A stretch of DNA of 64,000 bases from Christensenellaceae bacterium (GCA_031280685.1 JAITGM010000022.1:1656-65655); one strand, 5' to 3'. Counted from the first letter of the stretch, positions 2,643 to 52,823 are shown. Notes: generated by a model not told the origin, from the sequence alone. Made by a program: numbers and translations.

Positions 2643-2694
2643 CAACAATGGCGTTGCACGGGGCCGCAAGGCCCCTGGCAGCGCCTTTTTGTTT
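2643..2694 (+). promoter_or_regulatory. Putative ANTAR-type attenuator (hexaloop hairpin overlapping an intrinsic terminator) upstream of opp1; may also terminate the MATE transcript
   Basis: CAAC-AATGGC-GTTG (2643-2656) overlaps the terminator GGCGTTGC..GGGGCC-GCAA-GGCCCC..GCAGCGCC-TTTTTGTTT (2650-2694). Confidence 0.65.
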
Positions 2695-2721
2695 CCAAAC
2701 CAAGCATAGGGGGGAGCCAAG

Positions 2722-3636
2722 ATGCTCAAAACCATCCTCAAGCGGGTTCTCGTCGGCGTGGCGACCATGTTCGTGCTCATCACGGTGACCTTCTTCCTGG
2801 TTCGGCTGATGCCGGGCAGCCCCTTCGAGGCCGAAAACGTTTCAGCCCAGATGATCGCTTCGCTCGAGAAGGAGTACGGCCTTGACCAGCCGCTGCTCAA
2901 CCAATACCTGCTCTATTTAGAAAAGGTTCTGCACGGCGACCTGGGGATCTCTTACAAGAAGAACATCTCCGTGGTCACGCTAATCGGCAGGGGCATGCCG
3001 GCCACGATGCAAATCGGGCTTTTGGCCTTTTTGCTGGCCGCCGTCGTGGGCATCGGCCTTGGCATCTGGCAGGCCAGCACCAAGAGCGGCTTCATCCGCG
3101 GGCTTCTGGTTTCCTACGCGACGCTGGGCGTCAGCCTGCCGGGCTTCGTGACCGCTCTTTTGCTCATCGTGGTGTTCGGGGCCTGGCTGCAGGCGCTGCC
3201 GGTGGTCGGGCTGACCAGCCCCAAGCATTACATCCTGCCGGTGATCGCGCAGGCCTTCGGGCCGATTGCCACGATCTCCAGGCTCGTCAAGAGCAGCTAC
3301 TCAGAGGCCATGCAGATGGACTACGTAACCATGGCCCGGGCCAAGGGCCTGCGGCCCTGGCAGATCTCGCTCAAACACATCCTCAAAAACGCGATTCTGC
3401 CCGTCATCACCTACTTCGGCCCGGCGATCGCCTTCCTGCTCACGGGCTCCTTCGTGGTCGAAAGCCTCTTTTCCATCCCCGGCATCGGCAAGGAATTCGT
3501 CAGCGCCATCTCAAACCGCGATTACACCTTGGTTTTAGGCCTTTCCATCTTCATCGGCGGGGTGATCATCGTCGCGAACCTCGTGGTGGATCTGCTCTGC
3601 GCGGTCGTGGATCCGCGCATCAAGCTCAACGATTAA
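2722..3636 (+). CDS. oppB: Oligopeptide ABC transporter permease
   Basis: PGSPF, YGLDQPLLNQY, DYVTMARAKGL (EAA region), VESLFSIPGIG, DPRI C-terminus. Confidence 0.93.
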   Translation: MLKTILKRVLVGVATMFVLITVTFFLVRLMPGSPFEAENVSAQMIASLEKEYGLDQPLLNQYLLYLEKVLHGDLGISYKKNISVVTLIGRGMPATMQIGLLAFLLAAVVGIGLGIWQASTKSGFIRGLLVSYATLGVSLPGFVTALLLIVVFGAWLQALPVVGLTSPKHYILPVIAQAFGPIATISRLVKSSYSEAMQMDYVTMARAKGLRPWQISLKHILKNAILPVITYFGPAIAFLLTGSFVVESLFSIPGIGKEFVSAISNRDYTLVLGLSIFIGGVIIVANLVVDLLCAVVDPRIKLND

Positions 3637-3653
3637 ACAAGGAGGTGCCCCCA

Positions 3654-4571
3654 ATGGAAACCCCCAAAAAGGGCTTTTGGTTTGAACCCATCGAGCCTGA
3701 GCTGCAAAACAGCGAGTTTATCGCCGTTGAGTCCAAGGGCTTTCTAGCCGAGGCCTCGGCGCGCTTCCTTCGCAACAAGCGCGCGGTGTTTGGCCTGGCC
3801 ATCCTCGTCTTCTTCGCCGCGTTGGCGCTGTTTGGGCCCTTCCTCGTGCCCTACAGCTACGATGGGCAGTCCCCCGCCTTCGTCAACGCGCCGCCTTCCG
3901 CCGCGCACTGGCTCGGGGCGGATAAGTTCGGCAGGGATCTCTTCGTCAGGCTCTGCTACGGCGCGAGAATCAGCCTGTTCATCGGCTTTGCCAGCGCGCT
4001 GATCAACCTGGTCATCGGCTGCGTGCTGGGCGGCATTTCGGGCTACGCGGGCGGCAAGGTCGATCTGATCATCATGCGCGCGGTCGATATCATCTATGCG
4101 GTGCCCTCGATGCTCTATGTCATCCTCATCATGATGGCGCTCGGGGCCAACACCAAGTCCATCCTCATCGGCATCTGCATCCCCGGCTGGATCGGCATGG
4201 CCAGGCAGGTGCGTGGGCAGATCATCTCATTGAAGCAGCAGGAATTTTCGATGGCCGCGCTGGTGCTCGGCGCGGGCGACGGCCGCATCCTCTTTAAGCA
4301 TCTGATGATCAACGCGATCGGCCCGATCATCGTGCAGCTAACCTTCCTGGTGCCGCAGGCGATCTTTACCGAGGCCTTTTTGAGCTTCGTGGGCGTGGGC
4401 ATCTCGGCGCCGCTGGCCTCCTGGGGCTCGATGTGCCAAAGCGCGCGGGAGTTCATCACCCTTTACCCCTTGCAGATGCTCTGGCCCACGCTCTCGATCT
4501 CGCTGACCATCTTCTCGCTGAACTTCCTGGGCGAGGGCATCGGCGACGCGCTGAACCCCCGCAGCAAATAA
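3654..4571 (+). CDS. oppC: Oligopeptide ABC transporter permease
   Basis: HWLGADKFGRDLF, GARISL, TEAFLSFVGVG, GDALNPR. GGAGG RBS at 3641-3645 favours ATG 3654. Confidence 0.93.
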   Translation: METPKKGFWFEPIEPELQNSEFIAVESKGFLAEASARFLRNKRAVFGLAILVFFAALALFGPFLVPYSYDGQSPAFVNAPPSAAHWLGADKFGRDLFVRLCYGARISLFIGFASALINLVIGCVLGGISGYAGGKVDLIIMRAVDIIYAVPSMLYVILIMMALGANTKSILIGICIPGWIGMARQVRGQIISLKQQEFSMAALVLGAGDGRILFKHLMINAIGPIIVQLTFLVPQAIFTEAFLSFVGVGISAPLASWGSMCQSAREFITLYPLQMLWPTLSISLTIFSLNFLGEGIGDALNPRSK

Positions 4572-4590
4572 CGAAAGGAGCGTTCCCTGC

Positions 4591-5685
4591 ATGAGCCTTT
4601 TAGAGATCAGGCACCTTAGCACCCACTTCCAGACCGCCCAGGGCACGGTGAAGGCCCTTCGCGATGTTTCTTTCAGGGTTTCGCCCGGCGAGGTTTTCGG
4701 GCTGGTCGGGGAATCCGGCTCGGGCAAGAGCGTGTCGATGCTCAGCCTGATGGGCCTGCTGGGGGAAAACAGCGTAATCCCCGAGGGGGAGATCCTCTTT
4801 GGCGGCCGCGATATTTCCCCCTCGGAGCTTAACACGAAGAAAAAACGCCGCGAGTACGAAAAAAAGATGCGCAAGCTGCGCGGCGGCGAGATCTCGATGA
4901 TCTTTCAGGACCCGATGACCTTCCTAAACCCCGTTTTGAAGATCGGCACCCAGATCTGCGAGGGCATTTTAGCCCATATCCACTGCTCGCGGGAGGAAGC
5001 GCGGATCCGCGCCATCGAGCTGATGCGCCAGGTGGGCATTCCCAGCCCCGAAAAGCGGCTGGAGCAGTACCCCTTCGAGTTCTCGGGCGGGATGCGGCAG
5101 CGCATCATCATCGCGGCCGCGCTGGCCTGCAAGCCCAAGCTGATCATCGCGGATGAACCCACCACCGCCCTTGACGTAACCGTGCAGGCGCAGATCCTGG
5201 AGCTGATCCAGACCCTCACCGATGAAAGCGGCGCCGCGGTCATCATGATTACCCACGATTTGGGGGTCGTGGCCACGCTTTGCGACCGGATCGCCATCCT
5301 CTATGCCGGGCGGGTGATGGAAGAGGGCCTGACGGAAGAGATCTTCTACAACCCCAAGCACCCCTACACCAGGGGCCTGCTGGGCAGCATCAACAATTCC
5401 GAAAAGGATGGCAACGAGCCCTTGCGGCCCATCCCCGGCACGCCGCCGGACCTGCTGAAGCTGCCCGCGGGCTGCGCCTTCATGCCCAGGTGCCAAGAAG
5501 CCCTGCGCATCTGCGCCGCGCAGGAGCCGCCCGAAAGCTCCTTTTCGGGCACGCATCGCTGCTTCTGCTGGCAAAACTCCATGGATGCTTCGCTCATCAC
5601 GGTTCCCACGCCGGCCGCGGCGAAAAGGGCCCCAAGCGAAGCCGAAGCCCAAAATTTGGCGCTGAGCGCCGCTCGGGAGGGATAA
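4591..5685 (+). CDS. oppD: Oligopeptide ABC transporter ATP-binding protein
   Basis: GESGSGKS, FSGGMRQR, IIADEPTTALD, HPYTRGLL, C-terminal Cys-rich domain. Confidence 0.95.
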   Translation: MSLLEIRHLSTHFQTAQGTVKALRDVSFRVSPGEVFGLVGESGSGKSVSMLSLMGLLGENSVIPEGEILFGGRDISPSELNTKKKRREYEKKMRKLRGGEISMIFQDPMTFLNPVLKIGTQICEGILAHIHCSREEARIRAIELMRQVGIPSPEKRLEQYPFEFSGGMRQRIIIAAALACKPKLIIADEPTTALDVTVQAQILELIQTLTDESGAAVIMITHDLGVVATLCDRIAILYAGRVMEEGLTEEIFYNPKHPYTRGLLGSINNSEKDGNEPLRPIPGTPPDLLKLPAGCAFMPRCQEALRICAAQEPPESSFSGTHRCFCWQNSMDASLITVPTPAAAKRAPSEAEAQNLALSAAREG

Positions 5686-5689
5686 GTCA

Positions 5690-6736
5690 GTGGCTGAAAA
5701 GCTCTTGGAGGTCACCGACCTGTGCAAGTATTTTGAGCTCAAGCGCGGCCTGAAAGGCACGCAGGTAGTCAAGGCCGTAGACCACGTTTCCTTCGAGATC
5801 GCAAAGGGCGAAACCCTGGGCCTTGTGGGCGAGAGCGGCTGCGGCAAGTCCAGTCTCGGGCGCACGCTGCTGCGCATCTACGAGCCCACGGCGGGCGAGA
5901 TCCTCTACTGCGGCAAGGATCTGGCCAGGCTCTCGCGCAGGGGGTTTTTGCCCTACCGCCGCAAAATCCAGATGATCTTTCAGGATCCCTACGCTTCGCT
6001 CAACCCGCGCCTGACCGTGGGCGAGATCATCGGCGAAGGCATGCAGATCCACAAGCTCTGCACGAAGGCCCAGGCCACGCGCCGCGTGCAGGAACTGCTC
6101 GAGCTGGTGGGCCTAAAGCCAGACCATATCCGCCGCTACCCGCATGAGTTCTCGGGCGGGCAGAGGCAGCGCATCTGCATCGCGCGGACGCTGAGCCTCG
6201 ACCCTGAGTTCATCGTCTGCGACGAACCGATCTCGGCGCTTGATGTTTCCATCCAGGCCCAGGTCATCAACCTTTTGGAACTCATCCAGAAGGAGCGCGG
6301 CATCAGCTACCTCTTCATCGCGCACGATTTGGGCATGGTCAAGCACATTTCACACCGCATCGGGGTGATGTATCTGGGCCACATGGTGGAAACCGGCCCC
6401 TCGAACGACGTTTACCACGACCCGCTCCACCCCTACACCCGCGCGCTGCTCTCGGCGGAGCCGATTCCGGACCCTAGGGCGGCCCACTTAAAGAAGCGCA
6501 TCCTCTTGGAGGGCGAGATCCCAAGCCCGATCCATCCGCCAAAGGGCTGCCCCTTCGTCACCCGCTGCCCCTATGCCATGGAGGTCTGCGCGGCCATTCA
6601 GCCGCCGAGCTTCGAGCTGGAAAACCGCAAGGTTTCCTGCTTCCTCTACGAGCAGTGGCGCATCCGCGAGCGCGGGGGCAAAGGCCTGGCCTCCCTTCCC
6701 CAAAAAGCCCCCGCCCAACCGCCCGCAAACGCCTAA
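5690..6736 (+). CDS. oppF: Oligopeptide ABC transporter ATP-binding protein
   Basis: GESGCGKS, FSGGQRQR, VCDEPISALD, HPYTRALLS, GCPFVTRC. Confidence 0.95.
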   Translation: MAEKLLEVTDLCKYFELKRGLKGTQVVKAVDHVSFEIAKGETLGLVGESGCGKSSLGRTLLRIYEPTAGEILYCGKDLARLSRRGFLPYRRKIQMIFQDPYASLNPRLTVGEIIGEGMQIHKLCTKAQATRRVQELLELVGLKPDHIRRYPHEFSGGQRQRICIARTLSLDPEFIVCDEPISALDVSIQAQVINLLELIQKERGISYLFIAHDLGMVKHISHRIGVMYLGHMVETGPSNDVYHDPLHPYTRALLSAEPIPDPRAAHLKKRILLEGEIPSPIHPPKGCPFVTRCPYAMEVCAAIQPPSFELENRKVSCFLYEQWRIRERGGKGLASLPQKAPAQPPANA

Positions 6737-6778
6737 AATAGGCGCGGAGAATAAACACTTACGAGGAGGTTTTCGAAA

Positions 6779-8440
6779 ATGACCCGTTTTGCAAAGCTTT
6801 TGAGCGTTTTTTTGATCCTTTCCCTGCTCGCGCTGAGCTTGGCCGCCTGCGGCGGCGCACAGGCCCCCGAAACAAGCCCGGCAGGCGCTGCCGCCTCCCC
6901 CTCGGGCGGAGGCGAAAGGGAGATCACCATACGCATGGAGCCTGAAACCGGCACCCTGGACCCCGCGGGCAATTCCTCGATCACATACTGGGGCTACGCG
7001 GCCTACGCGCTGGCTCCGCTGGTCGAGCTGGCGCCGGACGGCTCCTACGACTATATCATCGCCGAAAGCTGCGACATCAATGAAGACAATACGGTCTTCA
7101 CCTTCCACTTCCGCGAGGGCGCGGCCTGGTCCGACGGCAGCCCCTGCACCCCCGCGGACTACATCAACACCATGAAAAGGGCTCTTGATCCCGCCTGCGG
7201 CTCGGGCTATTCCGACTTCCTTTTTAAGGTCAAGAACGGCAAGGCCATCTATGAGGGCAGCGCCGACCCCGATACCTTAGGCGTTTCCGCGCCGGATGAC
7301 AAGACCCTGGTCATCACGCTGGAGGAACCCTGCCAGTACTTCCTCGACCTGCTCTTTCTGCCCGTTTTCTACCCTTCTCATGCCGAAAAGGCCACCGAAA
7401 CCAACGGCGACTGGTGCTTTGACCCGGCGCGCAGCCTGGCCAACGGCCCCTTCTACCTGGCCGAGTATGTGCCCGAGCAGTATATCCTGCTAAAGAAGAA
7501 CCCCTACTACGTGCAGAAGGAGCGCATCAGCCTGGATTCCATCAAGCTGCTCGCCATCGCGGATACCCAGTCGGCCATCAGCGCGTATAAGACCGGCGAG
7601 GTGGACGTGACCAGCGCGGACTACACGGTTCTGGCAGAGTATGAGGGCGAGGACGATCTGGTCATCCTGCCGAGCATGACGAGCTACTACACCCTGCTCA
7701 ACTGGGACCGCGAGCCCCTCAGCAACCCGCTGGTGCGCGAGGCGCTCTCTATCTCAATTGATCGCGACGCGATCGCGGCCTCGGCGGGCAAGGGCAGCTA
7801 CGAGCCCACGAGTTTCTTCGTCGCCAGGTACATGACCAGCAAGCTCGGCGGCGGCGAAGGCAAAAAGTGGGGCGAAGAGGTTGACCCCTTGCTGGCGCTG
7901 AATATCGAGCGGGCGCAGCAGCTCCTGGCTGAGGCCGGCTACCCGGGCGGCGAGGGCTTCCCGGAGCTGAGCTTCAAATACCCTGCCATGGAGGTCGAGG
8001 CTGCCATCGCGCAGTCGATGCAGGCGCAATGGAAGCAGAACCTGGGCATCACGGTCAACCTCGAAGCGCAGGAGTACCAGGTCAACATCTCGGACCGCAG
8101 GGCCGGCGATTTCGATATTTGCCGCATGCGCTGGACTGCGGACTATGCGGATCCGACGACCTTCCTGAGCATGTACACGGCCAGCGCCAGCTATAACGAC
8201 AGCGGCGTCGCCAGCGCGAAGTACGAGGAGCTTCTGGCCCTTTCCGAGCGCGAAGGCGAGCCCTCGAAGCGCTTCCAGCTCCTGCACGATACGGAAAAGG
8301 TTCTCGTCGCGGAGGAGTTCGCCTTCATCCCGACGCTGGCCGGCATTGGCGTGACGCTGCGCAGCCCAAAACTTGGAAATATCGTCATCAACCCCAGCCG
8401 CAACACCCCGTTCTATAAATACGCCACCCTCGCGGACTAA
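6779..8440 (+). CDS. oppA: Oligopeptide ABC transporter substrate-binding lipoprotein (family 5)
   Basis: Signal peptide with lipobox LAAC; TLDP, WSDGSP, NGPFYL, WTADYADP motifs. Confidence 0.92.
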   Translation: MTRFAKLLSVFLILSLLALSLAACGGAQAPETSPAGAAASPSGGGEREITIRMEPETGTLDPAGNSSITYWGYAAYALAPLVELAPDGSYDYIIAESCDINEDNTVFTFHFREGAAWSDGSPCTPADYINTMKRALDPACGSGYSDFLFKVKNGKAIYEGSADPDTLGVSAPDDKTLVITLEEPCQYFLDLLFLPVFYPSHAEKATETNGDWCFDPARSLANGPFYLAEYVPEQYILLKKNPYYVQKERISLDSIKLLAIADTQSAISAYKTGEVDVTSADYTVLAEYEGEDDLVILPSMTSYYTLLNWDREPLSNPLVREALSISIDRDAIAASAGKGSYEPTSFFVARYMTSKLGGGEGKKWGEEVDPLLALNIERAQQLLAEAGYPGGEGFPELSFKYPAMEVEAAIAQSMQAQWKQNLGITVNLEAQEYQVNISDRRAGDFDICRMRWTADYADPTTFLSMYTASASYNDSGVASAKYEELLALSEREGEPSKRFQLLHDTEKVLVAEEFAFIPTLAGIGVTLRSPKLGNIVINPSRNTPFYKYATLAD

Positions 8441-8449
8441 ACTTTTTGC

Positions 8450-8478
8450 TTGACTTCGCGCAGGCGCTCGCGTACAAT
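8450..8478 (+). promoter_or_regulatory. Sigma-A-type promoter for the aminotransferase/PatB/GNAT unit
   Basis: TTGACT (8450-8455), 17 bp, TACAAT (8473-8478). Confidence 0.7.
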
Positions 8479-8572
8479 CAAACAAAGCGTGGTAAGCCTA
8501 TCTGTTTACTTTGTTTCCGAGGGGCGAAGGGATTCGCCCCTCGGGGCCTTCCACCCGCAAGGAGGAAAAACC

Positions 8573-9691
8573 ATGCCTGACTTCGAATCGCTCATCAAAC
8601 CCGCGCTTTTGGCCATGCCGCTCTTTCGGCCCTCAGCGGCCGCCGCGGATGTGATGAAGAAATATAACCTAAGCTCCGTAACCAAGCTGAGCATGAACGA
8701 AAACCAGTACGGCCCTTCGCCAAGGGCCATCGAAGCCATGATCGGCGAGGCGAAATCCCACGCCTTCCAATATCCGGATCGCCAGGGCGAACTGCTCCGG
8801 GCAATCGCTCAAAAGCACGGCGTCACGCCGCAAGGCCTCGCCATTTCGGCGGGCGCTTCGGGCATCCTCAACGCAATTGGCGATACCTTCATCCTTCCGG
8901 GCGACGAGGTCATCCTCTCGTCGATGCCCTACCAGCAATATCCCATGGTCGTGGCCCGCAACGATGGAAAGATCGTGACCATCCCCGTGCGGGAGGATTT
9001 AAGGCAGGATTTGGACGCCACGCTTGCCGCCATCGGCGGCAAGACCAAGCTCATCATGCTCTGCAACCCGGGCAATCCAAGCTCCGTAGCCGAAAATACG
9101 GCGGAATTGGAGGCCTTCATCCAAAAAGTGCCCGAAAGGGTCATCCTGATGGTGGATGAAGCCTACCTCGACTTCGCCACCGACCCGGAGCGCAAAAAGT
9201 CCATGATCCCAAACATAGAACGGCACCCCAACCTCATCGTCGTGCGCACCTTTTCCAAGCTCTACGGCCTGGCCGGGCTGCGCATCGGCTACGGCGTTTC
9301 AAGCCCCGAGCTCATCGCCTGCTTATCGCGCGGCGGGGCGCTCAGTTCGGTCAACCGCCTGGCCATGGCGGCCGCCATCGCGGCGCTCGAAGACGAAAGC
9401 TATCAGCGCTTCATCTACGATTCCATCACTGAGGATCGCGAAATGCTCGCCGAGCGCTTCAGGGGCTATGGCTGGGCGGTTTACCCCTCTTCGACGAACT
9501 TCCTCTACTTCAAAACCGGCCTTGACGCGGGCGCCCTGCTGGAAGCGCTGCAAGCGCGCGGCATCCTCATCCGCAATTTCGAGTTCAACCGCATTTCCGT
9601 CGGCACCAGGGAGCAAAACCGCGCGCTGCTCGGCGCGCTTGACGAGATTCTCCACTCGGGCGCGCTAAACAGGGCGGCGCGCAGCGCGTAA
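8573..9691 (+). CDS. Histidinol-phosphate aminotransferase-like PLP-dependent enzyme
   Basis: KLSMNEN, CNPGNP, VDEAY, RTFSKLYGLAGLRIGYG. GGAGG RBS at 8561 fixes the start at 8573. Confidence 0.85.
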   Translation: MPDFESLIKPALLAMPLFRPSAAAADVMKKYNLSSVTKLSMNENQYGPSPRAIEAMIGEAKSHAFQYPDRQGELLRAIAQKHGVTPQGLAISAGASGILNAIGDTFILPGDEVILSSMPYQQYPMVVARNDGKIVTIPVREDLRQDLDATLAAIGGKTKLIMLCNPGNPSSVAENTAELEAFIQKVPERVILMVDEAYLDFATDPERKKSMIPNIERHPNLIVVRTFSKLYGLAGLRIGYGVSSPELIACLSRGGALSSVNRLAMAAAIAALEDESYQRFIYDSITEDREMLAERFRGYGWAVYPSSTNFLYFKTGLDAGALLEALQARGILIRNFEFNRISVGTREQNRALLGALDEILHSGALNRAARSA

Positions 9692-9735
9692 CGTTTCTTA
9701 TGCGCGGGCCGATCCGCGCGGATATAAGGGGGAAT

Positions 9736-10896
9736 ATGACCATGGCGTTTGATTTCGACAAGCCAATCGACCGGAGCGCGACGCGCAGCGGCAAGTGGGC
9801 CGACCCGGAGCTGCTGCCCCTTTGGGTGGCGGATATGGACTTTGAAAGCCCGCCCGTGGTGCAGGAGGCGATCGCGGCGCGCGCCGCGCACAACCTCTAT
9901 GGCTACGACCGCCTGCCCGAGAACTACTTCCCCGCGCTGCAGGGCTGGTTCAAGGCCCGCCAGGGCTACGAACTAAAGGAGGATTGGCTGATCGCCACCT
10001 CGGGGGTGGTGAACGCGCTGCACCTGGCCGTGCAGGCGCTTTCGCTGCCCGGCGACGAGGTCGTCATCCAGCCGCCGGTCTACCATCCCTTCCCCCGCGC
10101 GATTCTAAACAGCGGCCGCCAGCTCGTCACCAGCCCGCTTCGGCGCGTTGAGAGCCGCTACGAGATCGACTTTGACGACCTCGAAGCCAAGTTCGCGCGC
10201 CGCAGGGTGAAGCTCTTCATTCTTTGCAACCCGCACAACCCAATCGGCAAGGTCTATAGCCGCCAAGAGCTTAAGACCATCGGCGAATTGGCCCTCAAGC
10301 ACGGCGTCGTCGTTGTTTCCGACGAGATCCACGGCGATCTCATCCTGCCCGGCCACGAGTTCACGCCCTTCGCCTCACTCGGCGGCGAGCATCTCAACAA
10401 TTCCGTGATCGCCACCGCCCCGAGCAAGACCTTTAACCTCGCGGGCCTTGGCACCTCGAATATCTTCATCGCAAACCCGGGTCTGCGGGACCAATTCGCT
10501 CGCTTTGGCGAAGGGCTGGGCCTGCACGGCGGTTCGCTCTATGGCTTCATCGCCTGCGAGGCAGCCTACCGTGCCGGCGGGCCCTGGCTAGATGAGCTGC
10601 TGGCCTATTTGCAGGGCAACGCCCAGCTCGTGCAGGGCTTTTTCAAGGCTGAGCTTCCCGAAATCAAGGCGGACGAATTGCAGGGCAGCTACCTGCAGTG
10701 GGTCGATTTCAGCGCCCTTGGGCTGGATGACGAGGCCCTGGAAGCCTTGATGCGCGAGCGGGCGAAACTCTGGGTTTCGCCTGGCATCCAGTTCGGCGAA
10801 GGCGGCTCGGGCTTTCTCCGCCTGAACCTGGCCACCCAAAGGTCGAGGCTCCAAACCGCTCTTGAGCGCATCAAGGCCGCGGTGCGCGGGCAATGA
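9736..10896 (+). CDS. MalY/PatB family PLP-dependent C-S lyase (cystathionine beta-lyase-like)
   Basis: LPLWVADMDF, LCNPHNPIG, VSDEIHGD, APSKTFNLAGL, GFLRLNLA. Confidence 0.9.
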   Translation: MTMAFDFDKPIDRSATRSGKWADPELLPLWVADMDFESPPVVQEAIAARAAHNLYGYDRLPENYFPALQGWFKARQGYELKEDWLIATSGVVNALHLAVQALSLPGDEVVIQPPVYHPFPRAILNSGRQLVTSPLRRVESRYEIDFDDLEAKFARRRVKLFILCNPHNPIGKVYSRQELKTIGELALKHGVVVVSDEIHGDLILPGHEFTPFASLGGEHLNNSVIATAPSKTFNLAGLGTSNIFIANPGLRDQFARFGEGLGLHGGSLYGFIACEAAYRAGGPWLDELLAYLQGNAQLVQGFFKAELPEIKADELQGSYLQWVDFSALGLDDEALEALMRERAKLWVSPGIQFGEGGSGFLRLNLATQRSRLQTALERIKAAVRGQ

Positions 10897-11502: not shown

Positions 11503-11519
11503 GATTTCTCAGGGTTCGG

Positions 11520-24305: not shown

Positions 24306-24334
24306 TTGACGGAGGGCGGGGTTTGTGCTAATCT
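24306..24334 (+). promoter_or_regulatory. Upstream promoter P1 of opp2 (extended -10)
   Basis: TTGACG (24306-24311), 17 bp, TAATCT (24329-24334) preceded by TG at 24326-24327. Confidence 0.6.
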
Positions 24335-24340: not shown

Positions 24341-24385
24341 GTGACGATGGGGTCGCGCCGAAAAAGGCGCGACCCCTTTTGTTTT
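24341..24385 (+). promoter_or_regulatory. Putative ANTAR-type attenuator immediately after P1
   Basis: GTGAC-GATGGG-GTCGC (24341-24356) overlaps the terminator GGGGTCGCGCC-GAAAAA-GGCGCGACCCC-TTTTGTTTT (24349-24385). Confidence 0.55.
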
Positions 24386-24440: not shown

Positions 24441-24468
24441 TTGACATAGCCGCGGGCGTGCATATACT
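24441..24468 (+). promoter_or_regulatory. Promoter P2 of opp2
   Basis: TTGACA (24441-24446), 16 bp, TATACT (24463-24468). Confidence 0.7.
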
Positions 24469-24633
24469 GGTGATAAACTAACCAAACAAGTATGAATGAT
24501 ATGTTTTATGAGAAGGAGGAAGTTCGATGGGCAGGCCATGGCGCCCCAGCCTAAAGGAGCGATGTCGCGGCTTCAGGCAAAAAGGCTATTCTTGCAATCC
24601 CAGCACATCCAAAGCAATAGGAGGAACCACACG

Positions 24634-26340: not shown

Positions 26341-26432
26341 CCCAAACGCAAAGCGCTTCGCCGGGGAGAAAGGGGCCAAAGGCCTTTTTCTCCCCGCGGC
26401 ATAAAAAAGACTGAAAAAGGAGGGCTGAAGGC

Positions 26433-29559: not shown

Positions 29560-29572
29560 GGAGGGAAAGCGG

Positions 29573-30526: not shown

Positions 30527-31629
30527 GCTGGGCCATTTTTGAAAGCCGCATCCGTCGCACGCAGGCGGAAATGCAGGGGCTTGGAATCGACCTCTTCGTG
30601 GCGGGCGCGTCCTCGAACCTCTTCTATTTGACGGGCTACCCCCCGCGCGGGGACGAGCGGCTGCTCGCCCTCGTGCTGCCAAGGGAGGGGGAGCCCTTTT
30701 TCATCGCCAACCTGCTCTATCGCCTGCAGGTCGAGCGCCTGCCCGTGAAGGAGCAGCTCTATTGGGCGGATGGCCAAGACCCTTATGGCCTGCTCAAATC
30801 CGCGGTCGAAGCGCGCGGATTCAAGACTGGCAAGGTCGCACTGGAAGCTTCGCTGCCCGCGCGCTTCGCGCTGGCGATTCAACAAGCCCTGAAGGGTTCG
30901 AGCTTCCTCCTGGGCGACGCCTTGACCGAAAACCAGCGCCTGATCAAGGATGAAAGCGAGCTTTCGGCCATCCGCAGGGCGAGCGCCGGGGCGGACGAAG
31001 CCCTCCGCGCCGTCTTAAAACGCGGACGGGCATGGATCGGCGAGACCGAGAGGGCGTTTTCAGACGCGCTGACCGCCGAAATGCGCGCGCTGGGCCTTGA
31101 AGCCTACGGCGCGCTGATCGCCGTGGGCGCGGGCGCGGCGGAACCGCACCACCGCACGGGCGAAACCAAAATCGAGGATGGAAGCTGCCTTCTGGCCGAC
31201 TTTGGCGGCCGGGTGGAAGGCTATTGCAGCGACATCACGCGCACGGTGCACTTTGGCAAGCCCTGCCCCGAATTTGAAAGGGTCTACGGCATCGTTTTGG
31301 AGGCGCATCTGCGCGCCGAGGCGGCCGCCAGGCCCGGCGGCATCCTGGGCGAGGTGGACGACGCCGCGCGGGAGTACATCGCAGGCCAGGGCTATGGCGA
31401 AGCCTTCACGCACCGGCTAGGCCACGGCATCGGCCTGGACGTGCACGAGGGCCCCTCGGCGGTGCGCGGCGAAAAAACCGTCATTCGCCCTGGCATGGTG
31501 TTTTCGAACGAGCCCGGCATCTATTTGCCCGGGCGTTTTGGCGTGCGGATAGAGAACCTGCTGGCGATCGGCCAAAGCGGTGCCGAGGCGCTGAACCGCT
31601 TCCCCCGGGAGCTGGTCGTGATCGGCTAA
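30523..31629 (+). CDS. Xaa-Pro peptidase (M24 family)
   Basis: NLFYLTG, DFGG..GYCSDITRT, HRLGHGIGLDVHE, NEPGIY..GVRIE. Confidence 0.92.
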   Translation: MSWAIFESRIRRTQAEMQGLGIDLFVAGASSNLFYLTGYPPRGDERLLALVLPREGEPFFIANLLYRLQVERLPVKEQLYWADGQDPYGLLKSAVEARGFKTGKVALEASLPARFALAIQQALKGSSFLLGDALTENQRLIKDESELSAIRRASAGADEALRAVLKRGRAWIGETERAFSDALTAEMRALGLEAYGALIAVGAGAAEPHHRTGETKIEDGSCLLADFGGRVEGYCSDITRTVHFGKPCPEFERVYGIVLEAHLRAEAAARPGGILGEVDDAAREYIAGQGYGEAFTHRLGHGIGLDVHEGPSAVRGEKTVIRPGMVFSNEPGIYLPGRFGVRIENLLAIGQSGAEALNRFPRELVVIG

Positions 31630-31662
31630 AGGCCGGTCTTAAAATAACAAGGAGGGCGCAAC

Positions 31663-33102
31663 ATGGGCGAAGAAACGCGGAAAAAGGTGCGCGGCTGGCT
31701 GGAAGAAAAAAGGCCGCAGATCGTTCAAAACATCCTCAGGCTGGCGCGAATCCCAAGCGTCAGCGTTTCGGGCGCACAGCCCGGCCCCTACGGCCAGGCC
31801 TGCCGCGACGCGCTGGATGAAGCTCTGAAGCTGGGCGCGGAGCTCGGTTTCTTCACGCAAAACTACGATTACAGGGTCGGCGCGCTCTGGCTGGGCGAAG
31901 GCGAAACCGCGGGCGGCAGCGTCGGCATCTGGGGGCATCTCGACGTGGTTCCCCCAGGCGGGAACTGGCTGCATACGGAGCCTTTTTCGCCAATTGAAAA
32001 GCAGGGTTATCTCATCGGCCGCGGCGTGGGCGACAATAAGGGCCCCGCAGTCGCCGCGCTCTATGCCGCGCTGGCCATGAAGGAGCTTGGCCTTCGGCCC
32101 GCAAAGCCCCTGCGCATCTTCCTTGGCTGCAGCGAAGAAACCGGCATGGACGACGTGACGCATTACGTCGCCCATTACGAAGCCCCGGCGCTTTCGCTGG
32201 TGGCGGACGGCGCCTTCCCCGTGGGCTTTGCCGAAAAGGGCATCATCGAGGTCAATCTGCTGGGCGATGCGCCCCTAAGCGAAAGCGTTTTGGCGCTGAG
32301 TGGCGGGCAGGCCAGCAACATCGTGCCGGATCTGGCACAAATCGAGTTGAAAGCGAACGAGGCGCTCGCCGAAAGGCTCAAAAATGGTCTTCCCGAAGGC
32401 CTTGAAGCACAAGTGGGCGAAAACGCCGTCACCATTCGCGCGCACGGCGTGGCCAGCCACTCGGCCAGGCCCGAGGCCGGCGTGAACGCCATCCAAAAGC
32501 TGCTGCGGGGGCTGTTCTTCGCGGGGATCTTAAGCGATGAGGACGAAAGCGCGCTGGCCTTTTTGCTCAAGGCGGGCATCGGCACCGGCGGCCATGGCCT
32601 TGGCATCGCCTGCGCGGACGAGATCAGCGGCGCGCTGACCGCCGTGGGCAGCCTTTTGCGCCTTGACGCGCGGCGGCAGCCCATCCTGCACCTCAATATC
32701 CGCTACCCGGTCACGGCGAGGCTGGAAGGGCTTTTGGCGGGCATCGCTAAGGCTTGCGAGCAGGGCGGCTACAAGGCGCAGCTTACGCAGGCGAACAAGC
32801 CCAACCACTTCCCCAAGGAAAGCCCTGCGGTGGCTGCGCTGACGAAGGCCTTTAACGAGGTCGCGGGCGCGCAGGCCGAGCCTTACGCCATGAGCGGCGG
32901 CACCTACGCGCGCAAGCTGCCCAACGGGTTGGTCTTTGGCATGGGCCTGCCCAAGGGCCTGGGGCATGAAAACGACCCCTCTCTCTTCCCGCCCGGGCAC
33001 GGCGGCGCCCACGCGCCGGACGAAGCCCTTTTCATCGACGACTTGCTCAAGGGCATGGAAATCTATATTTTGGCGCTCACGGAGTGGTCGGGCGAGATCT
33101 AA
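31663..33102 (+). CDS. M20 family dipeptidase (PepV/Sapep-like)
   Basis: GHLDVVP, GRGVGDNKGP, SEETG, GGTYARK, GAHAPDE. Confidence 0.9.
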   Translation: MGEETRKKVRGWLEEKRPQIVQNILRLARIPSVSVSGAQPGPYGQACRDALDEALKLGAELGFFTQNYDYRVGALWLGEGETAGGSVGIWGHLDVVPPGGNWLHTEPFSPIEKQGYLIGRGVGDNKGPAVAALYAALAMKELGLRPAKPLRIFLGCSEETGMDDVTHYVAHYEAPALSLVADGAFPVGFAEKGIIEVNLLGDAPLSESVLALSGGQASNIVPDLAQIELKANEALAERLKNGLPEGLEAQVGENAVTIRAHGVASHSARPEAGVNAIQKLLRGLFFAGILSDEDESALAFLLKAGIGTGGHGLGIACADEISGALTAVGSLLRLDARRQPILHLNIRYPVTARLEGLLAGIAKACEQGGYKAQLTQANKPNHFPKESPAVAALTKAFNEVAGAQAEPYAMSGGTYARKLPNGLVFGMGLPKGLGHENDPSLFPPGHGGAHAPDEALFIDDLLKGMEIYILALTEWSGEI

Positions 33103-44013: not shown

Positions 44014-44583
44014 CTAAATATACAAATCCAAAATGTCTTGCGCAGCCTGCCGCTTGGGGATGCGCTGATCCATGGCCTGTTTTTCGATGAAATGGTGGGC
44101 CTGCGGCTCGGTCAGGCCGCGCTGCTCGATCAGCAGCCATTTCGCGCGGTTTACCAGGCGCTGTTCGTCTAAGCGCTCGTACAACCTGCGGTTTTCTTCC
44201 CGCAGGGCGGCGATCTTGACGTGCGCGGCCAGCGCAAGGCGCACCGCCTGCAAAAAGTTTTGCCCGTTGATCGGCTTGCCCAGGGTCAGCACCCCGGAAT
44301 CGCCCATCGAGGCGGCCGCGCCGTCAAGCTCTTCCTGACGAACGAGCAAGAGCGAGGCAAGACCCAGAGTAGAAGCCGCAAAAAGGGCGAGCTCCGGGCC
44401 GTTTTCTCCGTTTAAAGGAGCGTTGACCACCACGATGGAAAAGGGCCTGTTCGTGAGCAGCCGCCTGGCCTCGCTGCCGGAGGCCGCGGTTTCGATGGAG
44501 GGAAGGCGAATCTCTTCCAGCAGCGAGCGAAGGGCTAGGCGCCCCTTTTCGCTGGAGGAAATCAGCAAAGCGCCGCCGGTCAA
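44014..44583 (-). CDS. ANTAR-domain antiterminator with a pseudo-receiver domain (NitR/AmiR-like)
   Basis: Receiver-like N-terminus with SS in place of the acidic pocket and Asn (IVVVNAPL) at the phospho-acceptor position; coiled coil; [29 protein letters not shown] motif. Confidence 0.9.
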
Positions 44584-44616: not shown

Positions 44617-45891
44617 TCAAATCACGGGGAAGTCGTTTTCGATCTCGAAGCTCTCGGCGTCGCCCGAGCGGAACATCCTCTCGTACTCGCTGAGCTTGTG
44701 CGAAAGGAAGGGCCCCGCAAAGCGCTGGGGCAGGGCTTTTTTAACCAGATCCGAGCGCCGCGCCAGGCTCACCGCCTCTTCCAGACTGGCCGGCAGGCTG
44801 CCCAGCACCTCGCCCTCAGGCTCAAGCGCAAGCCGCCTTTCGATGCCCTCGGCCCCAGCCTCGAGCAGCAGCGCAAAGCCGATGTAGGGGTTCATGGCAG
44901 GGTCTGGCGAGCGAAGCTCGATGTGGGCGCTCCCGCCGCCCGCCTGCGGCACGCGCAAGAGCTGCGCCAGGTTCTGGTTCGACCAGGCGATCTCGCCCGG
45001 GGCATCAAATCGCCCGAGGCGCGAATACGAACCCGGCAGTGGGTTTAAGAAGGCGCTGATCTCGGCCACGCGCGAGAGAATGCCCTGCATGAAGGCCTGG
45101 GCGACCTCGGTCAGGCCATTTTCGCCCTTGATGACGTTCTCGCCGTCCTTTTCCAGGGCGATGGAAACGTGCAGGCCGCTGCCACTCTGCTCCTTGAGCG
45201 GCTTGGGGAGGAGCGACGCGTAAAGCCCAAAGCTTGAAGCCACGGTTTTGGCCACGTTCGTGAAGGCGACGTAAGCGTCCGCCATCTTGATCGGGCTTCT
45301 GCGGTGCAGGTCGATCTCGTTTTGCCCGGGGCCGGACTCGTGCAGCGAGGAGGAAGGCCTAATGCCCATCTGCTCAAGATTCAGGCAGATCTCACGGCGG
45401 ACGTTTTCGCCCTTATCGAGCGGAGCGAAGTCCAGATAGCCGGCCTGGTCGTGCGGCGCGAGGATGGGCTGGCCCTGATCGCCCAAATTGAAGAGGTAAA
45501 ACTCGCACTCCAGGGCGATCTTTGCCGTGTAGCCAAGCGCGAAAAGGCGCTTTACGCTGCTCTTGAGGATGCGCCTGCCGTCGAGTTCGAAGGGCTCGCC
45601 GCTGGAATAGAGGATGTCGCAATACACCCTGGCGACCCTGCCGCCCTGCTGCGGGCGCCAGGGAAGCAGCGCCATGGTTGAAAGATCCGGCATCAAGATG
45701 AGGTCGGATCCCTTGGTATCGACAAAGCCAAAGATGCCCGAGGCATCGAAGCTCTTGCCGAAGGCCGCCACGTTCTCGAACTCGTCTGCCATGATGGAGA
45801 TGCTCTTGAGCCTGCCGAACAGATCACAGAAAGCCAGTCGGATGAACTTCACGTCGTTTTCGCCCAAAAATGCGCCGGTGTCTTCGGTCAT
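44617..45891 (-). CDS. Type I (GSI-alpha) glutamine synthetase-like protein with altered catalytic motifs
   Basis: VKFIRLAFCD, LECEFYLF, HESGPGQNEID, PKP..GSGLH and IELRSPD are present, but it has FDAP and QNLAQLLRVP where active enzymes have YEAP and NRSPLIRIP. Confidence 0.88.
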   Translation of the reverse strand: MTEDTGAFLGENDVKFIRLAFCDLFGRLKSISIMADEFENVAAFGKSFDASGIFGFVDTKGSDLILMPDLSTMALLPWRPQQGGRVARVYCDILYSSGEPFELDGRRILKSSVKRLFALGYTAKIALECEFYLFNLGDQGQPILAPHDQAGYLDFAPLDKGENVRREICLNLEQMGIRPSSSLHESGPGQNEIDLHRRSPIKMADAYVAFTNVAKTVASSFGLYASLLPKPLKEQSGSGLHVSIALEKDGENVIKGENGLTEVAQAFMQGILSRVAEISAFLNPLPGSYSRLGRFDAPGEIAWSNQNLAQLLRVPQAGGGSAHIELRSPDPAMNPYIGFALLLEAGAEGIERRLALEPEGEVLGSLPASLEEAVSLARRSDLVKKALPQRFAGPFLSHKLSEYERMFRSGDAESFEIENDFPVI

Positions 45892-45994
45892 GGCCTATTC
45901 CTCCTTCATGGCTCGTAAAATAGAAGGCCCCGCGGCGCCTTTGGCGGAGGAGCGGGGCGATGAGCGCTGTGCTTTGGGCCAAGGCCCAGTCTAT

Positions 45995-46025
45995 TTTAAA
46001 AGATGCGGCGAAAAGTTGCAAGCGG
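45995..46025 (-). promoter_or_regulatory. Internal promoter for the GS-like/ANTAR/pyrG/dapL unit
   Basis: Minus strand TTGCAA, 17 bp, TAAAAT; coordinates are approximate. Confidence 0.55.
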
Positions 46026-48459: not shown

Positions 48460-48463
48460 CGCT

Positions 48464-49738: not shown

Positions 49739-49765
49739 GAATTTCTCCCCCCTTCAATTGAGTTG

Positions 49766-51274: not shown

Positions 51275-51277
51275 GAT

Positions 51278-52366: not shown

Positions 52367-52592
52367 GGAACACCCTCCTTGAGTTGACTTGGGGGAAAGG
52401 GCCCGCGCCCTTGCCCGTACCGGGTTGTTTAAAGGAGACGCGGCCTCGTTTTTTCTTGATTCGGGAATCCGCCGCCGGCGAACTGCCCCGAGAAAGGGGC
52501 TTGCCTTGCATTTTGGGCTGTTTGGCCATAAAAAGCGTTTCCGGGAAGGAAAGAAGGCCGAAAGCCGGAATTCGCGACTGAAACCCAAAAGT

Positions 52593-52621
52593 AGTTTAGG
52601 GGCAATCGCGGAACTTGTCAA
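52593..52621 (-). promoter_or_regulatory. Promoter of the glutamate synthase/purA operon
   Basis: Minus strand TTGACA (52621-52616), 17 bp, TAAACT (52598-52593). Confidence 0.7.
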
Positions 52622-52653
52622 TGTGTGAGGAAGCGGCTCTCTGTTATCTTTCT

Positions 52654-52693
52654 GCAAATCTGCAGGATGGCACCGATCATCCTGCAGATTTGC
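52654..52693. promoter_or_regulatory. 16-bp perfect inverted repeat centred between divergent promoters; candidate operator
   Basis: GCAAATCTGCAGGATG-N8-CATCCTGCAGATTTGC. Confidence 0.55.
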
Positions 52694-52727
52694 GTTGTTA
52701 TTTCCATATTAACCGCCAAACTGGGGG

Positions 52728-52756
52728 TTGACGTCCCCCTTTCGCCGGCGTATACT
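52728..52756 (+). promoter_or_regulatory. Promoter of type III glnA
   Basis: TTGACG (52728-52733), 17 bp, TATACT (52751-52756). Confidence 0.75.
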
Positions 52757-52765
52757 GCTTTTAAC

Positions 52766-52823
52766 CAGCAAAGACGCTGAAGCATGGCCTTGGTCTGTGC
52801 CTTTCAGGTCTTTTTTGTTTTTT
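52766..52823 (+). promoter_or_regulatory. Putative ANTAR-type attenuator in the type III glnA leader
   Basis: CAGC-AAAGAC-GCTG (52766-52779) overlaps the terminator stem 52773-52810, which is followed by TTTTTTGTTTTTT. Confidence 0.75.

Follow-up and report, generated by a model that had tools for sequence, protein, structure and literature searches.

Hexaloop hairpins fused to terminators before nitrogen-assimilation genes in Clostridia: candidate single-hairpin targets of an ANTAR protein

Genes and hairpin-terminator sites in the window

The stretch of DNA analysed here (the window) comprises 64,000 nucleotides from a Christensenellaceae bacterium, whose genome is referred to as G000. It contains three leaders, sites 1, 2 and 3, in which a small hairpin overlaps a terminator, together with the following genes:

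45..2617, plus strand: 2-hydroxyacid dehydrogenase and MatE genes, between an attenuator at the left edge of the window and site 1
2722..10896, plus strand: target operon 1, an Opp-type peptide ABC importer and two aminotransferases
24631..33102, plus strand: target operon 2 (uncertain), a binding protein, two permeases, two ATPases and M24 and M20 peptidases
44014..44583, minus strand: ANTAR protein with a pseudo-receiver, a coiled coil and an ANTAR domain
44617..45891, minus strand: type I glutamine synthetase gene (glnA), directly upstream of the ANTAR gene
52866..54959, plus strand: type III glutamine synthetase (GSIII) gene, target of site 3

The importer of operon 1 is made up of two permeases, two ATPases and a binding protein, and one long operon probably begins with the 2-hydroxyacid dehydrogenase and MatE genes. 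The regulatory features are:

1..27, plus strand: an additional attenuator (3' arm and T tract), preceding the 2-hydroxyacid dehydrogenase gene
2643-2656, plus strand: site 1 hairpin CAAC-AATGGC-GTTG, with consensus loop and closing C-G pair
2650..2695, plus strand: site 1 terminator and T tract (stem 2650-2685, -30.1 kcal/mol)
24306..24334, plus strand: promoter-like TTGACG-17-TAATCT of site 2 (8/12), identical in the sister genome G001
24341-24356, plus strand: site 2 hairpin GTGAC-GATGGG-GTCGC, with G at loop position 1, outside the consensus
24349..24385, plus strand: site 2 terminator and T tract (stem 24349-24376, -26.3 kcal/mol)
24441..24468, plus strand: TTGACA-16-TATACT, a strong second promoter that follows the site 2 terminator
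52728..52756, plus strand: promoter TTGACG-17-TATACT of the GSIII gene (10/12)
52766-52779, plus strand: site 3 hairpin CAGC-AAAGAC-GCTG
52773..52823, plus strand: site 3 terminator and T tract (stem 52773-52810, -12.2 kcal/mol)

Sequence and folding bear out the hairpins that the first-pass annotation had placed at these three positions, each overlapping a T-tailed terminator. The 5' arm of the terminator begins at loop base 4 in all three, as had been claimed, so that hairpin and terminator are mutually exclusive. Folded alone, the hairpins are weak (-2.6, -7.0 and -5.2 kcal/mol for sites 1, 2 and 3), with stems of 4, 5-6 and 4 bp, within the minimum of at least 3 bp in the dual-hexaloop definition. 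The A1 and G4 of that hexaloop are present in site 1 (AATGGC) and site 3 (AAAGAC), while site 2 (GATGGG) lacks A1. Transcription starts had been predicted just before two of the sites, and a matching promoter was found by promoter scan for site 3; the box before site 2 reaches only 8/12 and was not reported by the scan of that leader. Between the end of the -10 box and the hairpin there are 6 nt at site 2 and 9 nt at site 3. Site 1 is located 26 nt past the MatE stop codon, where the promoter scan gave no match, and as no promoter was found between site 1 and the opp genes, read-through would be needed to reach them. The hairpin of the attenuator at the left edge, TTATC-AACGGG-GATAA, lies 7-27 nt to the left of the window start (G000:C9:1629-1649) and is preceded by TTGACA-17-TATTAT.

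The ANTAR gene is the only one in G000 (PF03861, 63.8 bits in the genome search and 60.6 bits on the protein). In its product, which matches the AmiR structure 1qo0, the acceptor Asp is replaced by an Asn that aligns with the phospho-acceptor of Rv1626; this N54 is nearly invariant (at least 90% of 93 orthologues), and the acidic pair near the N-terminus is changed to Ser. The protein thus has a C-terminal ANTAR domain behind a receiver-like domain that lacks the phospho-acceptor, as in AmiR-like regulators, and not the phosphorylatable receiver with a cognate kinase of the GnfR type. Since Asn replaces the phosphorylated Asp, the nitrogen signal would have to reach the regulator by way of a partner, either a protein or a ligand, and not through a kinase. 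The pairing of glnA with the ANTAR gene is kept in 93 of 104 loci.

A conserved motif before nitrogen-assimilation genes

The hairpin-terminator elements before nitrogen-assimilation genes are real and widely conserved, and they probably act as switches. GSIII leaders carry a hairpin fused to a terminator in 19 of 30 loci from 41 relatives (20 instances), and the element was also found in 18 of 23 loci with ammonium-transporter (amt) leaders, whose stems differ from each other (GCAC/GTGC, GACAC/GTGTC, GAAC/GTTT, TTGAC/GTCAA). Forty hairpins, selected by a filter for a closing C-G pair, at least three pairs and A at loop position 1, were aligned. All 40 have the closing C-G pair and, as the filter demanded, A at loop position 1. 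The inner pairs covary: one position has CG 17, AU 8, GC 7 and UA 2, and the next ones AU 23, CG 8, GC 5 and GU 3, followed by GC 25, AU 12 and GU 3. Paired cells make up 88% of the alignment vs 10-54% with the partner slid, a percentage that is partly built in because the filter required the closing pair and at least three pairs.

The strict motif is a closing C-G pair and a loop A-A-N-G-R-N on a covarying stem of 3-8 bp fused to a terminator; sites 1 and 3 match it, and site 2, with its G at loop position 1, does not. The first-pass annotation had held that equal frequency of its motif at unrelated terminators would speak against it. The bare geometry (4-bp stem, hexaloop, loop-4 register) occurs at 34 of 1333 terminator-like hairpins of G000 (2.6%), and since other registers of the same geometry give similar rates (1.1-3.4%) it is not enriched. 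The specific C-AANGRN-G motif behaves differently, with 94 matches in 1.28 Mb around 80 ANTAR orthologues from Clostridia vs 4 in the reversed sequences, a control that is poorer in terminators than real sequence. A single change at loop position 1, 2 or 4 or at the closing pair reduces the count to 0-11, vs 0-10 in the control. Loops with G1 are accordingly not enriched, either in the 80 loci (11 vs 8 in the control) or in G000 (27 vs 19). Among terminators starting in AANGRN-G in the ANTAR loci, stem lengths peak at 4-6 bp (83 with at least 4 bp), whereas over the whole G000 genome they show a near-geometric decay. Hairpin-only covariance models did not separate the true sites from GC-rich coding sequence in a search of G000, and no match to the element was found in Rfam. 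Loop position 4 is where the terminator 5' arm begins in 22 of the 43 instances (the 40 hairpins of relatives and the three G000 sites) and in 54 of the 94 wider matches, and folding energies span 0 to -9.7 kcal/mol for hairpins and -12 to -39 kcal/mol for terminators.

An upstream partner hairpin had not been found in the first pass, and the wider set agrees: a partner with A1 and G4 lies upstream in 3 of 93 matches vs 5.2 expected. Downstream, the figure is 12 of 94 vs 7.4 expected, so the two tandem hairpins of the dual-hexaloop definition are not seen here. A promoter scoring at least 10/12 was found within 80 nt of the hairpin in 66 of 93 matches, with 4-22 nt between the end of the -10 box and the hairpin (4-14 nt in 64 of the 66). 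As the hairpin usually lies close behind the -10 box and no partner is enriched, the single-hairpin reading holds.

The ORFs that follow the matches in the 80 loci (n=91) are led by GSIII (26), the first gene of GOGAT (16), glnA (13) and Amt (7), followed by AsnA (6), AsnB (5), HAD hydrolase (5), CTP synthase (2), adenylosuccinate synthetase (2), and GMP synthase, NAD synthase, GDH and DAP epimerase (1 each), with 5 of no family. The functional enrichment in this list is partly built in, because selection of the loci started from the ANTAR gene, itself a member of nitrogen-assimilation clusters. The motif was also present in the examined GSIII and amt leaders of 22 of 24 ANTAR-positive relatives vs 1 of 9 examined ANTAR-negative ones, counts in which the relatives are not independent of one another. 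The exceptions are G010, which is ANTAR-negative and retains the motif, and the ANTAR-positive G029 and G030, with no motif in the leaders examined. In all, at least 581 relatives of the regulator were found, and the 94 sites fall in 54 of the 80 loci.

Proposed mechanism and alternative explanations

The best explanation of these data, which we consider probable, is that sites 1 and 3 and their relatives are protein-dependent transcription attenuators under the single ANTAR protein. It builds on the anatomy, the conservation, the covariation, the co-occurrence with ANTAR genes and the absence of a partner. The nascent RNA would first fold the weak hairpin (a 3-8 bp stem with an invariant closing C-G and the loop A-A-N-G-R-N), whose first base mostly lies only a few nucleotides from the transcription start and which has no second recruitment hairpin. 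Loop bases 4-6 and the entire 3' arm of the hairpin would double as the foot of an intrinsic terminator that is far more stable, and without the regulator this terminator would win and the transcript end at a length of about 45-60 nt. Under nitrogen shortage, an ANTAR dimer, whose binding we infer together with the direction of the response and its signal, would hold the hairpin shut by contacting the hexaloop and closing pair; the terminator could then not nucleate, and the polymerase would read through into the GSIII and ammonium-transporter genes, joined in this genus by the peptide importer with its aminotransferases.

As part of the same explanation, the attenuator family probably takes in sites 1 and 3 and at least four more sites in G000. 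Two of these precede the ammonium-transporter/PII genes (the fourth and fifth motif sites), one the 2-hydroxyacid dehydrogenase gene and one a divergent aminotransferase gene. The GOGAT-glnA-ANTAR operon of G000 has no canonical site of its own. The regulon had originally been outlined as GSIII and both peptide importers. From this outline GSIII stands, and so does the first importer for this genus only, with the second importer doubtful. The chances that site 2 belongs to the family appear evenly balanced from its sequence, because G1 is outside the consensus, yet present in rare canonical leaders.

A narrower reading takes site 2 for nothing more than a common terminator or a unit giving a short transcript, with a chance hairpin in front, and with less likelihood extends this to site 1, leaving GSIII and the ammonium transporters as the only members of the regulon. 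Such hairpins occur at about 2.6% of terminators by chance, and about 7 of the 19 G000 matches with stems of at least 4 bp are expected by chance; the lack of enrichment of G1 loops and the strong promoter after the terminator fit this reading for site 2, as does for site 1 its position where a MatE terminator is expected. Importer membership is in addition confined to this genus, the Opp orthologues having the site in the sister genome only. We nevertheless find this reading unlikely, as site 1 has the full consensus, its hairpin is kept in the sister genome with only the free loop position 3 changed while the spacer has diverged, and a twin stem-loop, GAAC-AATGGC-GTTT, is found in an amt leader of G017. 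The site 2 hairpin likewise survives in the sister genome despite a diverged spacer and terminator loop, and G1 variants are present in L107, L168 and L170, promoter-proximal leaders of fully canonical form.

Binding of the ANTAR protein to the hairpin is a prediction, and the hairpin might instead be read by another factor, such as an RNA-binding protein, a PII-type protein or a small ligand, with the ANTAR link reflecting a shared nitrogen neighbourhood. The retention of the motif in G010, in which the search for an ANTAR gene gave nothing, would agree with this, and with the ANTAR gene embedded in the same clusters throughout, co-occurrence could be indirect. Nevertheless, the A1 and G4 of the hexaloop are ANTAR recognition features (PMC3369931), the loop and closing pair equal those of the RNA bound in vitro by GnfR (PMC2995071), the motif was unseen in 8 of 9 ANTAR-negative relatives examined, and a hairpin of 14-16 nt without an Rfam match is too small for a ligand pocket, which makes another reader quite improbable. 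The inverted repeat could also work as DNA, with a repressor using it as its operator at +1 to +20 in nitrogen-gene promoters, the terminator overlap being incidental. Its usual place 4-14 nt after the -10 box is a classic repressor position, and a separate conserved TCCTGCA box upstream shows that there is DNA-level control here as well. However, the half-sites vary freely around a conserved asymmetric loop, which is the reverse of a palindromic operator, and G-U wobbles preserve the stem (3+3+1 cells at the inner pairs). The element also occurs within operons far from promoters (between GSIII and amt, and at site 1), always with the terminator on its 3' side, and we regard an operator as very improbable. 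Attenuation under the ANTAR protein is thus the reading that we retain. The original proposal of nitrogen control by ANTAR through a single-hairpin site keeps its core, a single hexaloop element that covaries and is tied to ANTAR by co-occurrence, with a sole ANTAR gene in the genome, and is weakened at site 2, for the importers beyond this genus and in its novelty.

Comparison with known antitermination systems

ANTAR antitermination is understood almost wholly from EutV, where it needed both hairpins (PMC3369931, PMC8934654). A structural paper in which an ANTAR dimer contacts a single hexaloop redefined the minimal site as one hexaloop and asked if single-hexaloop sites exist and what they regulate (Walshe, 2022; PMC8934654). 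The present family would supply concrete examples of such sites, conserved and in large number, in the most demanding setting of direct fusion to terminators, and a sharp sequence rule, C-AANGRN-G, small enough for a 16-nt RNA. It also outlines a nitrogen regulon for uncultured gut Oscillospiraceae-like Clostridia, with GSIII, ammonium transporters and, in this genus, the peptide importer and aminotransferases. A further claim goes beyond this: that one hexaloop hairpin at the 5' end of the transcript suffices for ANTAR antitermination, without a recruitment hairpin and with the terminator only 30-45 nt on, read by a kinase-less pseudo-receiver ANTAR protein co-transcribed with glutamine synthetase, and that this is the main nitrogen switch in much of Clostridia. 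We see this claim as standing at about even chances. If true, the one-hairpin design would do away with the rule of two hairpins derived from EutV and point to a new route by which an ANTAR protein receives the nitrogen signal, possibly via glutamine synthetase itself.

EutV/EutW share with the present elements the A1/G4 hexaloop, the short stem, the importance of closing pairs, the terminator overlap and a dimer on one hexaloop at a time. They differ in having two hairpins 5-12 nt apart, where the present leaders have no partner and often no room for one, and in that EutV is phosphorylated; A2 and the closing C-G are also fixed here (PMC3369931, PMC8934654). Like the protein described here, AmiR of the AmiC/AmiR system (Pseudomonas aeruginosa) and NasT of NasS/NasT have an unphosphorylatable receiver-like domain, controlled there by a partner encoded next to it, but what is encoded next to the ANTAR gene here is a type I glutamine synthetase and not a periplasmic-binding-protein-like sensor (PMC2995071, PMC3795266). 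ANTAR-type regulators ending a GOGAT/glnA cluster, with a proposed ammonia response, are described for Clostridium acetobutylicum (nitR, a glnA-linked antiterminator) and C. thermocellum (Clo1313_2030; PMC4676874).

A close likeness is also seen to GnfK/GnfR of Geobacter sulfurreducens. The ANTAR regulator of this pair, GnfR, was shown to bind RNA that contains CAGGCAAGGGCGCC; such sites overlap terminators in the leaders of nitrogen genes, glnK and amtB among them (Ueki and Lovley, 2010; PMC2995071). The single conserved RNA site, CAGGCAANGGCGCC, lies upstream of and overlaps an intrinsic terminator, and written as a hairpin it becomes GGC-AANGGC-GCC, with the same loop and closing C-G as here. 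AANGGC and the C-G pair are identical in site 1 and most relatives, while the stems differ (CAAC/GTTG and CAGC/GCTG here) and site 3 has AAAGAC. GnfR differs in being phosphorylatable with a kinase, GnfK, where our protein has Asn at the acceptor; the Geobacter genes are for nitrogen fixation with RpoN promoters, where sigma-70-like promoters abut the hairpin here; the phylum differs; and where they describe the site, its authors gave a sequence, not a hairpin (PMC2995071). For Clostridia, table S2 of Ramesh (2012) contains matches before glutamine synthetase and ammonium-transporter genes (PMC3369931). The elements are therefore less novel than had been claimed, as the GnfR site has the same loop and closing pair (PMC2995071) and ANTAR nitrogen regulons of Clostridia were predicted in 2012 (PMC3369931). 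By this comparison the control principle is already known, and what the present leaders appear to add is its stripped-down, one-hairpin form.

Three hairpin-terminator elements in the window

Three small hexaloop hairpins, each overlapping a T-tailed terminator, had been placed by the first-pass annotation before two peptide importers and the type III glutamine synthetase gene (GSIII). All three match the sequence exactly, and the observation of hairpin-terminator elements is confirmed. The window spans C9:1656-65655 of the draft genome (G000), which comprises 2.24 Mb in 50 contigs with 60% G+C. The features in the window are as follows.

2643-2656, plus strand: site 1 hairpin, CAAC-AATGGC-GTTG (-2.6 kcal/mol folded alone)
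2650-2685, plus strand: site 1 terminator, T-tailed (-30.1 kcal/mol)
2722-10896, plus strand: site 1 target, an Opp-type peptide importer followed by two aminotransferases
24341-24356, plus strand: site 2 hairpin, GTGAC-GATGGG-GTCGC (-7.0 kcal/mol folded alone)
24349-24376, plus strand: site 2 terminator, T-tailed (-26.3 kcal/mol)
From 24631, plus strand: site 2 target, a second Opp-type importer with M24 and M20 peptidases
44014-44583, minus strand: ANTAR gene, last in a long minus-strand cluster, where it directly follows the type I glutamine synthetase gene
52766-52779, plus strand: site 3 hairpin, CAGC-AAAGAC-GCTG (-5.2 kcal/mol folded alone)
52773-52810, plus strand: site 3 terminator, T-tailed (-12.2 kcal/mol)
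52866-54959, plus strand: site 3 target, the GSIII gene

At all three sites the small hairpins are weak whereas the terminators are strong, and in the minimum-energy folds loop position 4 is the start of the terminator 5' arm (3/3 sites), as had been claimed.

The bare geometry (4-bp stem, hexaloop and exact register) occurs in 34 of the 1333 terminator-like hairpins genome-wide in G000 (2.6%), and other registers of the same geometry give 1.1-3.4%. Geometry by itself is therefore no more than chance. The terminator survey did reveal a fourth site of the same anatomy, which suggested that the signal lies in the sequence and not in the geometry. The sequence motif (closing C-G pair, loop AANGRN) proved to be enriched around ANTAR orthologues. 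Each of the two ammonium-transporter/PII fusion genes of G000 has its own promoter-proximal hairpin-terminator module.

G000:C30:120715-120760: fourth site, AAGC-AAAGAT-GCTT (L031/L032), immediately preceded by a TTGACA-17-TATAAC promoter and followed 44 nt further on by an ammonium-transporter/PII fusion gene (582 aa)
G000:C48:2360-2410: promoter-proximal ammonium-transporter/PII module, AGC-AAGGGC-GCT (L052)

Covariance models of the hairpin alone were built from 20 GSIII leaders (R1) and 40 leaders (R2) and searched over G000 at E up to 10, giving 26 and 34 matches, respectively. Only the GSIII site stood before a terminator with R1, and only GSIII, amt2 and site 1 with R2; the remaining matches were nearly all inside GC-rich ORFs of at least 130 aa (top 18 of 26 inspected for R1, 33 of 34 for R2). 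The hairpin alone is thus too short for searching. The IUPAC pattern CAANGGCG-N18-48-CGCCTTT was too noisy over 41 genomes for a comparison of ANTAR-positive and ANTAR-negative genomes, many of its matches being coding sequence or A-tract/GC-stem terminators.

Other kinds of element were also considered. A riboswitch was rejected, as the element is too small and lacks an Rfam match: the whole window gave zero matches at gathering scores, and two leaders gave nothing relevant at E up to 1. That the sites act as DNA operators was weighed as well, and rejected as highly improbable.

A conserved one-hairpin family in relatives

The GSIII gene was fetched from 41 relatives within the genus, family and order. 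The element is present in 19 of 30 GSIII loci (20 instances), in a leader composed of a promoter, a spacer of 7-19 nt and ACAGC-AA[AGT]G[GA]C-GCTGT fused to a terminator. It was also found in 18 of 23 ammonium-transporter (amt) loci, where the stems differ widely (GCAC/GTGC, GACAC/GTGTC, GAAC/GTTT, AAGC/GCTT, GGAC/GTTC, TTGAC/GTCAA), and as an internal attenuator between GSIII and amt. Across 40 aligned hairpins the closing C-G pair and loop residues A1 and G4 are invariant, A2 is nearly so, and the three inner stem pairs covary. Paired cells amount to 88% versus 10-54% with a slid 3' partner, but because the 40 rows were preselected by a filter demanding the closing pair and at least 3 pairs, the variety of pair types is informative and the percentage less so.

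A profile of 23 orthologues identified at least 581 relatives of the ANTAR regulator in the genome collection, and the best 80 of these loci (1.28 Mb in total) were scanned. They belong mostly to Oscillospiraceae, Ruminococcaceae, Christensenellaceae, Sedimentibacter, Romboutsia, Intestinibacter and Lachnospiraceae, with a few Spirochaetes MAGs. Cultivable carriers of the regulator include Harryflintia acetispora DSM 100433, Clostridium methylpentosum DSM 5476, Sedimentibacter saalensis DSM 13558 and Yeguia hominis. A descriptor consisting of the closing C-G pair, the loop AANGRN, a stem of at least 3 bp and a terminator 5' arm starting by loop position 7 gave 94 matches in 54 of the 80 loci, versus 4 in reversed sequences. 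As reversed sequence contains fewer terminators, two controls on real sequence were added. A single change at loop position 1, 2 or 4 or in the closing pair left 0-11 matches in the 80 loci (controls 0-10). Terminators beginning in AANGRN-G in the ANTAR loci have a bimodal stem length peaking at 4-6 bp (at least 4 bp in 83 of 269), compared with a near-geometric decay over the whole G000 genome. In 54 of the 94 matches loop position 4 marks the beginning of the 5' arm, which makes the register noted for the window the family norm.

Among the 91 ORFs that follow matches in these loci, GSIII (26), the first gene of the glutamate synthase operon (16), glnA (13) and Amt (7) are followed by AsnA (6), AsnB-type (5), HAD hydrolase (5), CTP synthase (2), adenylosuccinate synthetase (2), and GMP synthase, NAD synthase, glutamate dehydrogenase and DAP epimerase (1 each); 5 have no family. 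This enrichment before nitrogen genes is partly built in, since the loci were chosen around a gene living in nitrogen-assimilation clusters.

A promoter matching at least 10/12 positions, with its -10 box ending 7-19 nt before the hairpin, was found in 25 of the relatives' 40 instances. Promoters of this quality precede 66 of 93 hairpins in the wider set, and for 64 of them the distance from the end of the -10 box to the hairpin is 4-14 nt. With this spacing the hairpin starts within a few bases of the likely transcription start, too close for a partner to fit upstream. At 3-20 nt upstream, 3 of 93 cases have an A1/G4 hexaloop hairpin versus 5.2 expected from shuffles, in agreement with the earlier description of a single hairpin, and 12 of 94 have one between the motif hairpin and the T tract versus 7.4 expected. 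Tandem stacks of two complete hairpin-terminator modules are found in five relatives (G003, G005, G021, G022 and G031). The only recurrent candidate for a partner hairpin is CAAA-ACGGCG-TTTG, ∼21 nt upstream of the conserved hairpin in three amt leaders of one genus (L043, L046 and L047); it lies inside the 3' end of the preceding gene, and its conservation may simply be due to coding sequence.

Membership of the individual sites

Site 3 is a core member of the family. Site 1 has the full consensus and, although not among the leaders used to build model R2, reached 17.1 bits with it. The sister genome G001 has CAAC-AAAGGC-GTTG, with only the free loop position changed; around it (permease 94% identical) there is divergence in the upstream MatE 3' end and in parts of the terminator. 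Beyond the genus the Opp search gave only paralogues at ≤44% identity, without the motif. The stretch from the MatE gene to site 1 yielded no promoter, and a further attenuator with its own promoter lies just before the window. The favored interpretation of site 1 is therefore an attenuator inside a long operon that encodes 2-hydroxyacid dehydrogenase, MatE, the Opp importer and the aminotransferases.

Just before the window start: further attenuator TTATC-AACGGG-GATAA, after a TTGACA-17-TATTAT promoter, with its terminator ending at window position 21
G000:C9:1380-1460, minus strand: divergent module GGC-AAGGGA-GCC plus terminator (L101), after a TTGACA-17-TATGCT promoter and 35 nt before a 396-aa aminotransferase gene

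The stem of L101 is only 3 bp; it is a probable further member of the regulon. A DNA search for this left-edge divergent region gave no match in G001, which is 88% complete and whose contig begins inside MatE.

Site 2 has a G at loop position 1, and this class is not enriched (11 versus 8 in the 80 loci, 27 versus 19 in G000). Its promoter matches at only 8/12 positions, and a strong TTGACA-16-TATACT promoter lies downstream of its terminator. G001 keeps the site as GTGAC-GATGAG-GTCGC despite divergence in the spacer and the terminator loop, and G1 variants occur in three fully canonical promoter-proximal leaders (L107, L168 and L170, from two independent sequences). We consider its membership an even question. 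The proposed regulon is substantially right as regards GSIII and the first peptide importer, and may extend to the second.

The strong second promoter is followed by a 5' untranslated region of ∼155 nt (24470-24630) that leads to the binding-protein gene and is partly conserved in G001. Translation of this protein probably does not begin at 24496, where the ORF is listed to start; a good ribosome-binding site and a lipoprotein signal go with the ATG at 24631.

The divergent GOGAT-operon and GSIII promoters have an 18-bp inverted repeat (52653-52694) at their midpoint, with 32 and 34 nt separating it from their -35 boxes. Each arm contains a TCCTGCA box, which also stands 160-225 nt ahead of the GSIII start codon at 8 of 30 relatives' loci; a ninth (L016) has it only at -52 (∼1 expected by chance). 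The repeat is a candidate site for a DNA-binding regulator, and hence for a second layer of control.

The ANTAR regulator and known systems

G000 has one ANTAR-domain gene, and the minus-strand cluster that it ends also contains archaeal-type glutamate synthase pieces, purA and pyrG. The gene is present in 24 of the 41 genomes, and for 22 of these 24 the GSIII or amt leaders that were examined showed the motif, the exceptions being G029 and G030 (51% complete). Leaders were available for 9 of the 17 ANTAR-negative genomes: the motif is present in one (G010), a relic remains in its congener G004, and it is absent in 7. The co-occurrence spans many families, although relatives are not independent. 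The immediate upstream same-strand neighbor of the ANTAR gene is glnA in 93 of 104 loci. A predicted complex of glutamine synthetase and the ANTAR protein (score 0.03, mark 0.32) weighs neither way.

Two other leaders in the window were inspected. The glnA-ANTAR leader (45892-46010, minus strand) has a near-motif, CGCC-AAAGGC-GCCG (45933-45946), with one C-C stem mismatch, located inside the loop of a terminator-like hairpin (GCCCCGC...GCGGGGC then CTTCTATTTT) and not overlapping its 5' arm; 13 other Clostridia have a canonical site in this leader. The glutamate synthase operon leader (52528-52592, minus strand) follows a TTGACA-17-TAAACT promoter and has a terminator-like hairpin (GCG..TTCCGG / CCGGAA..CGC) whose T run abuts the ATG. 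The C-AANGRN-G hairpin is absent from it, whereas 16 relatives have the motif before the same gene.

The ANTAR protein aligns with Rv1626 (1s8n), AmiR (1qo0) and EutV (6wsh). The phospho-acceptor Asp position of its receiver is Asn, nearly invariant in 93 orthologues, which makes it a pseudo-receiver of the type seen in AmiR, to which a kinase cannot supply the signal.

In the definition of Ramesh et al. (PMC3369931) the ANTAR substrate consists of a pair of hexaloop hairpins, each with A1 and G4; they predict nitrogen regulons in many bacteria, and their table S2 has matches before glutamine synthetase and ammonium-transporter genes of Clostridia, among them the C. thermocellum amt leader (NC_009012.1 1820473-1820517). 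According to Walshe et al. (PMC8934654), the ANTAR dimer contacts one hexaloop, EutV still requires both hairpins, and single-hexaloop sites should be searched for. Our full-text literature search, with subscription journals mostly outside its scope, found no published description of a one-hairpin family in Clostridia. In Geobacter, Ueki and Lovley (PMC2995071) report CAGGCAANGGCGCC upstream of and overlapping terminators in the nifH, glnK and amtB leaders, and binding of RNA with such a site by phosphorylated GnfR. Read as GGC-AANGGC-GCC, this sequence has the loop and closing pair of the present motif. The known ANTAR nitrogen switch thus takes a one-hairpin form here, with a kinase-less regulator; binding by this regulator, the signal and the direction in which the switch responds are inferred.
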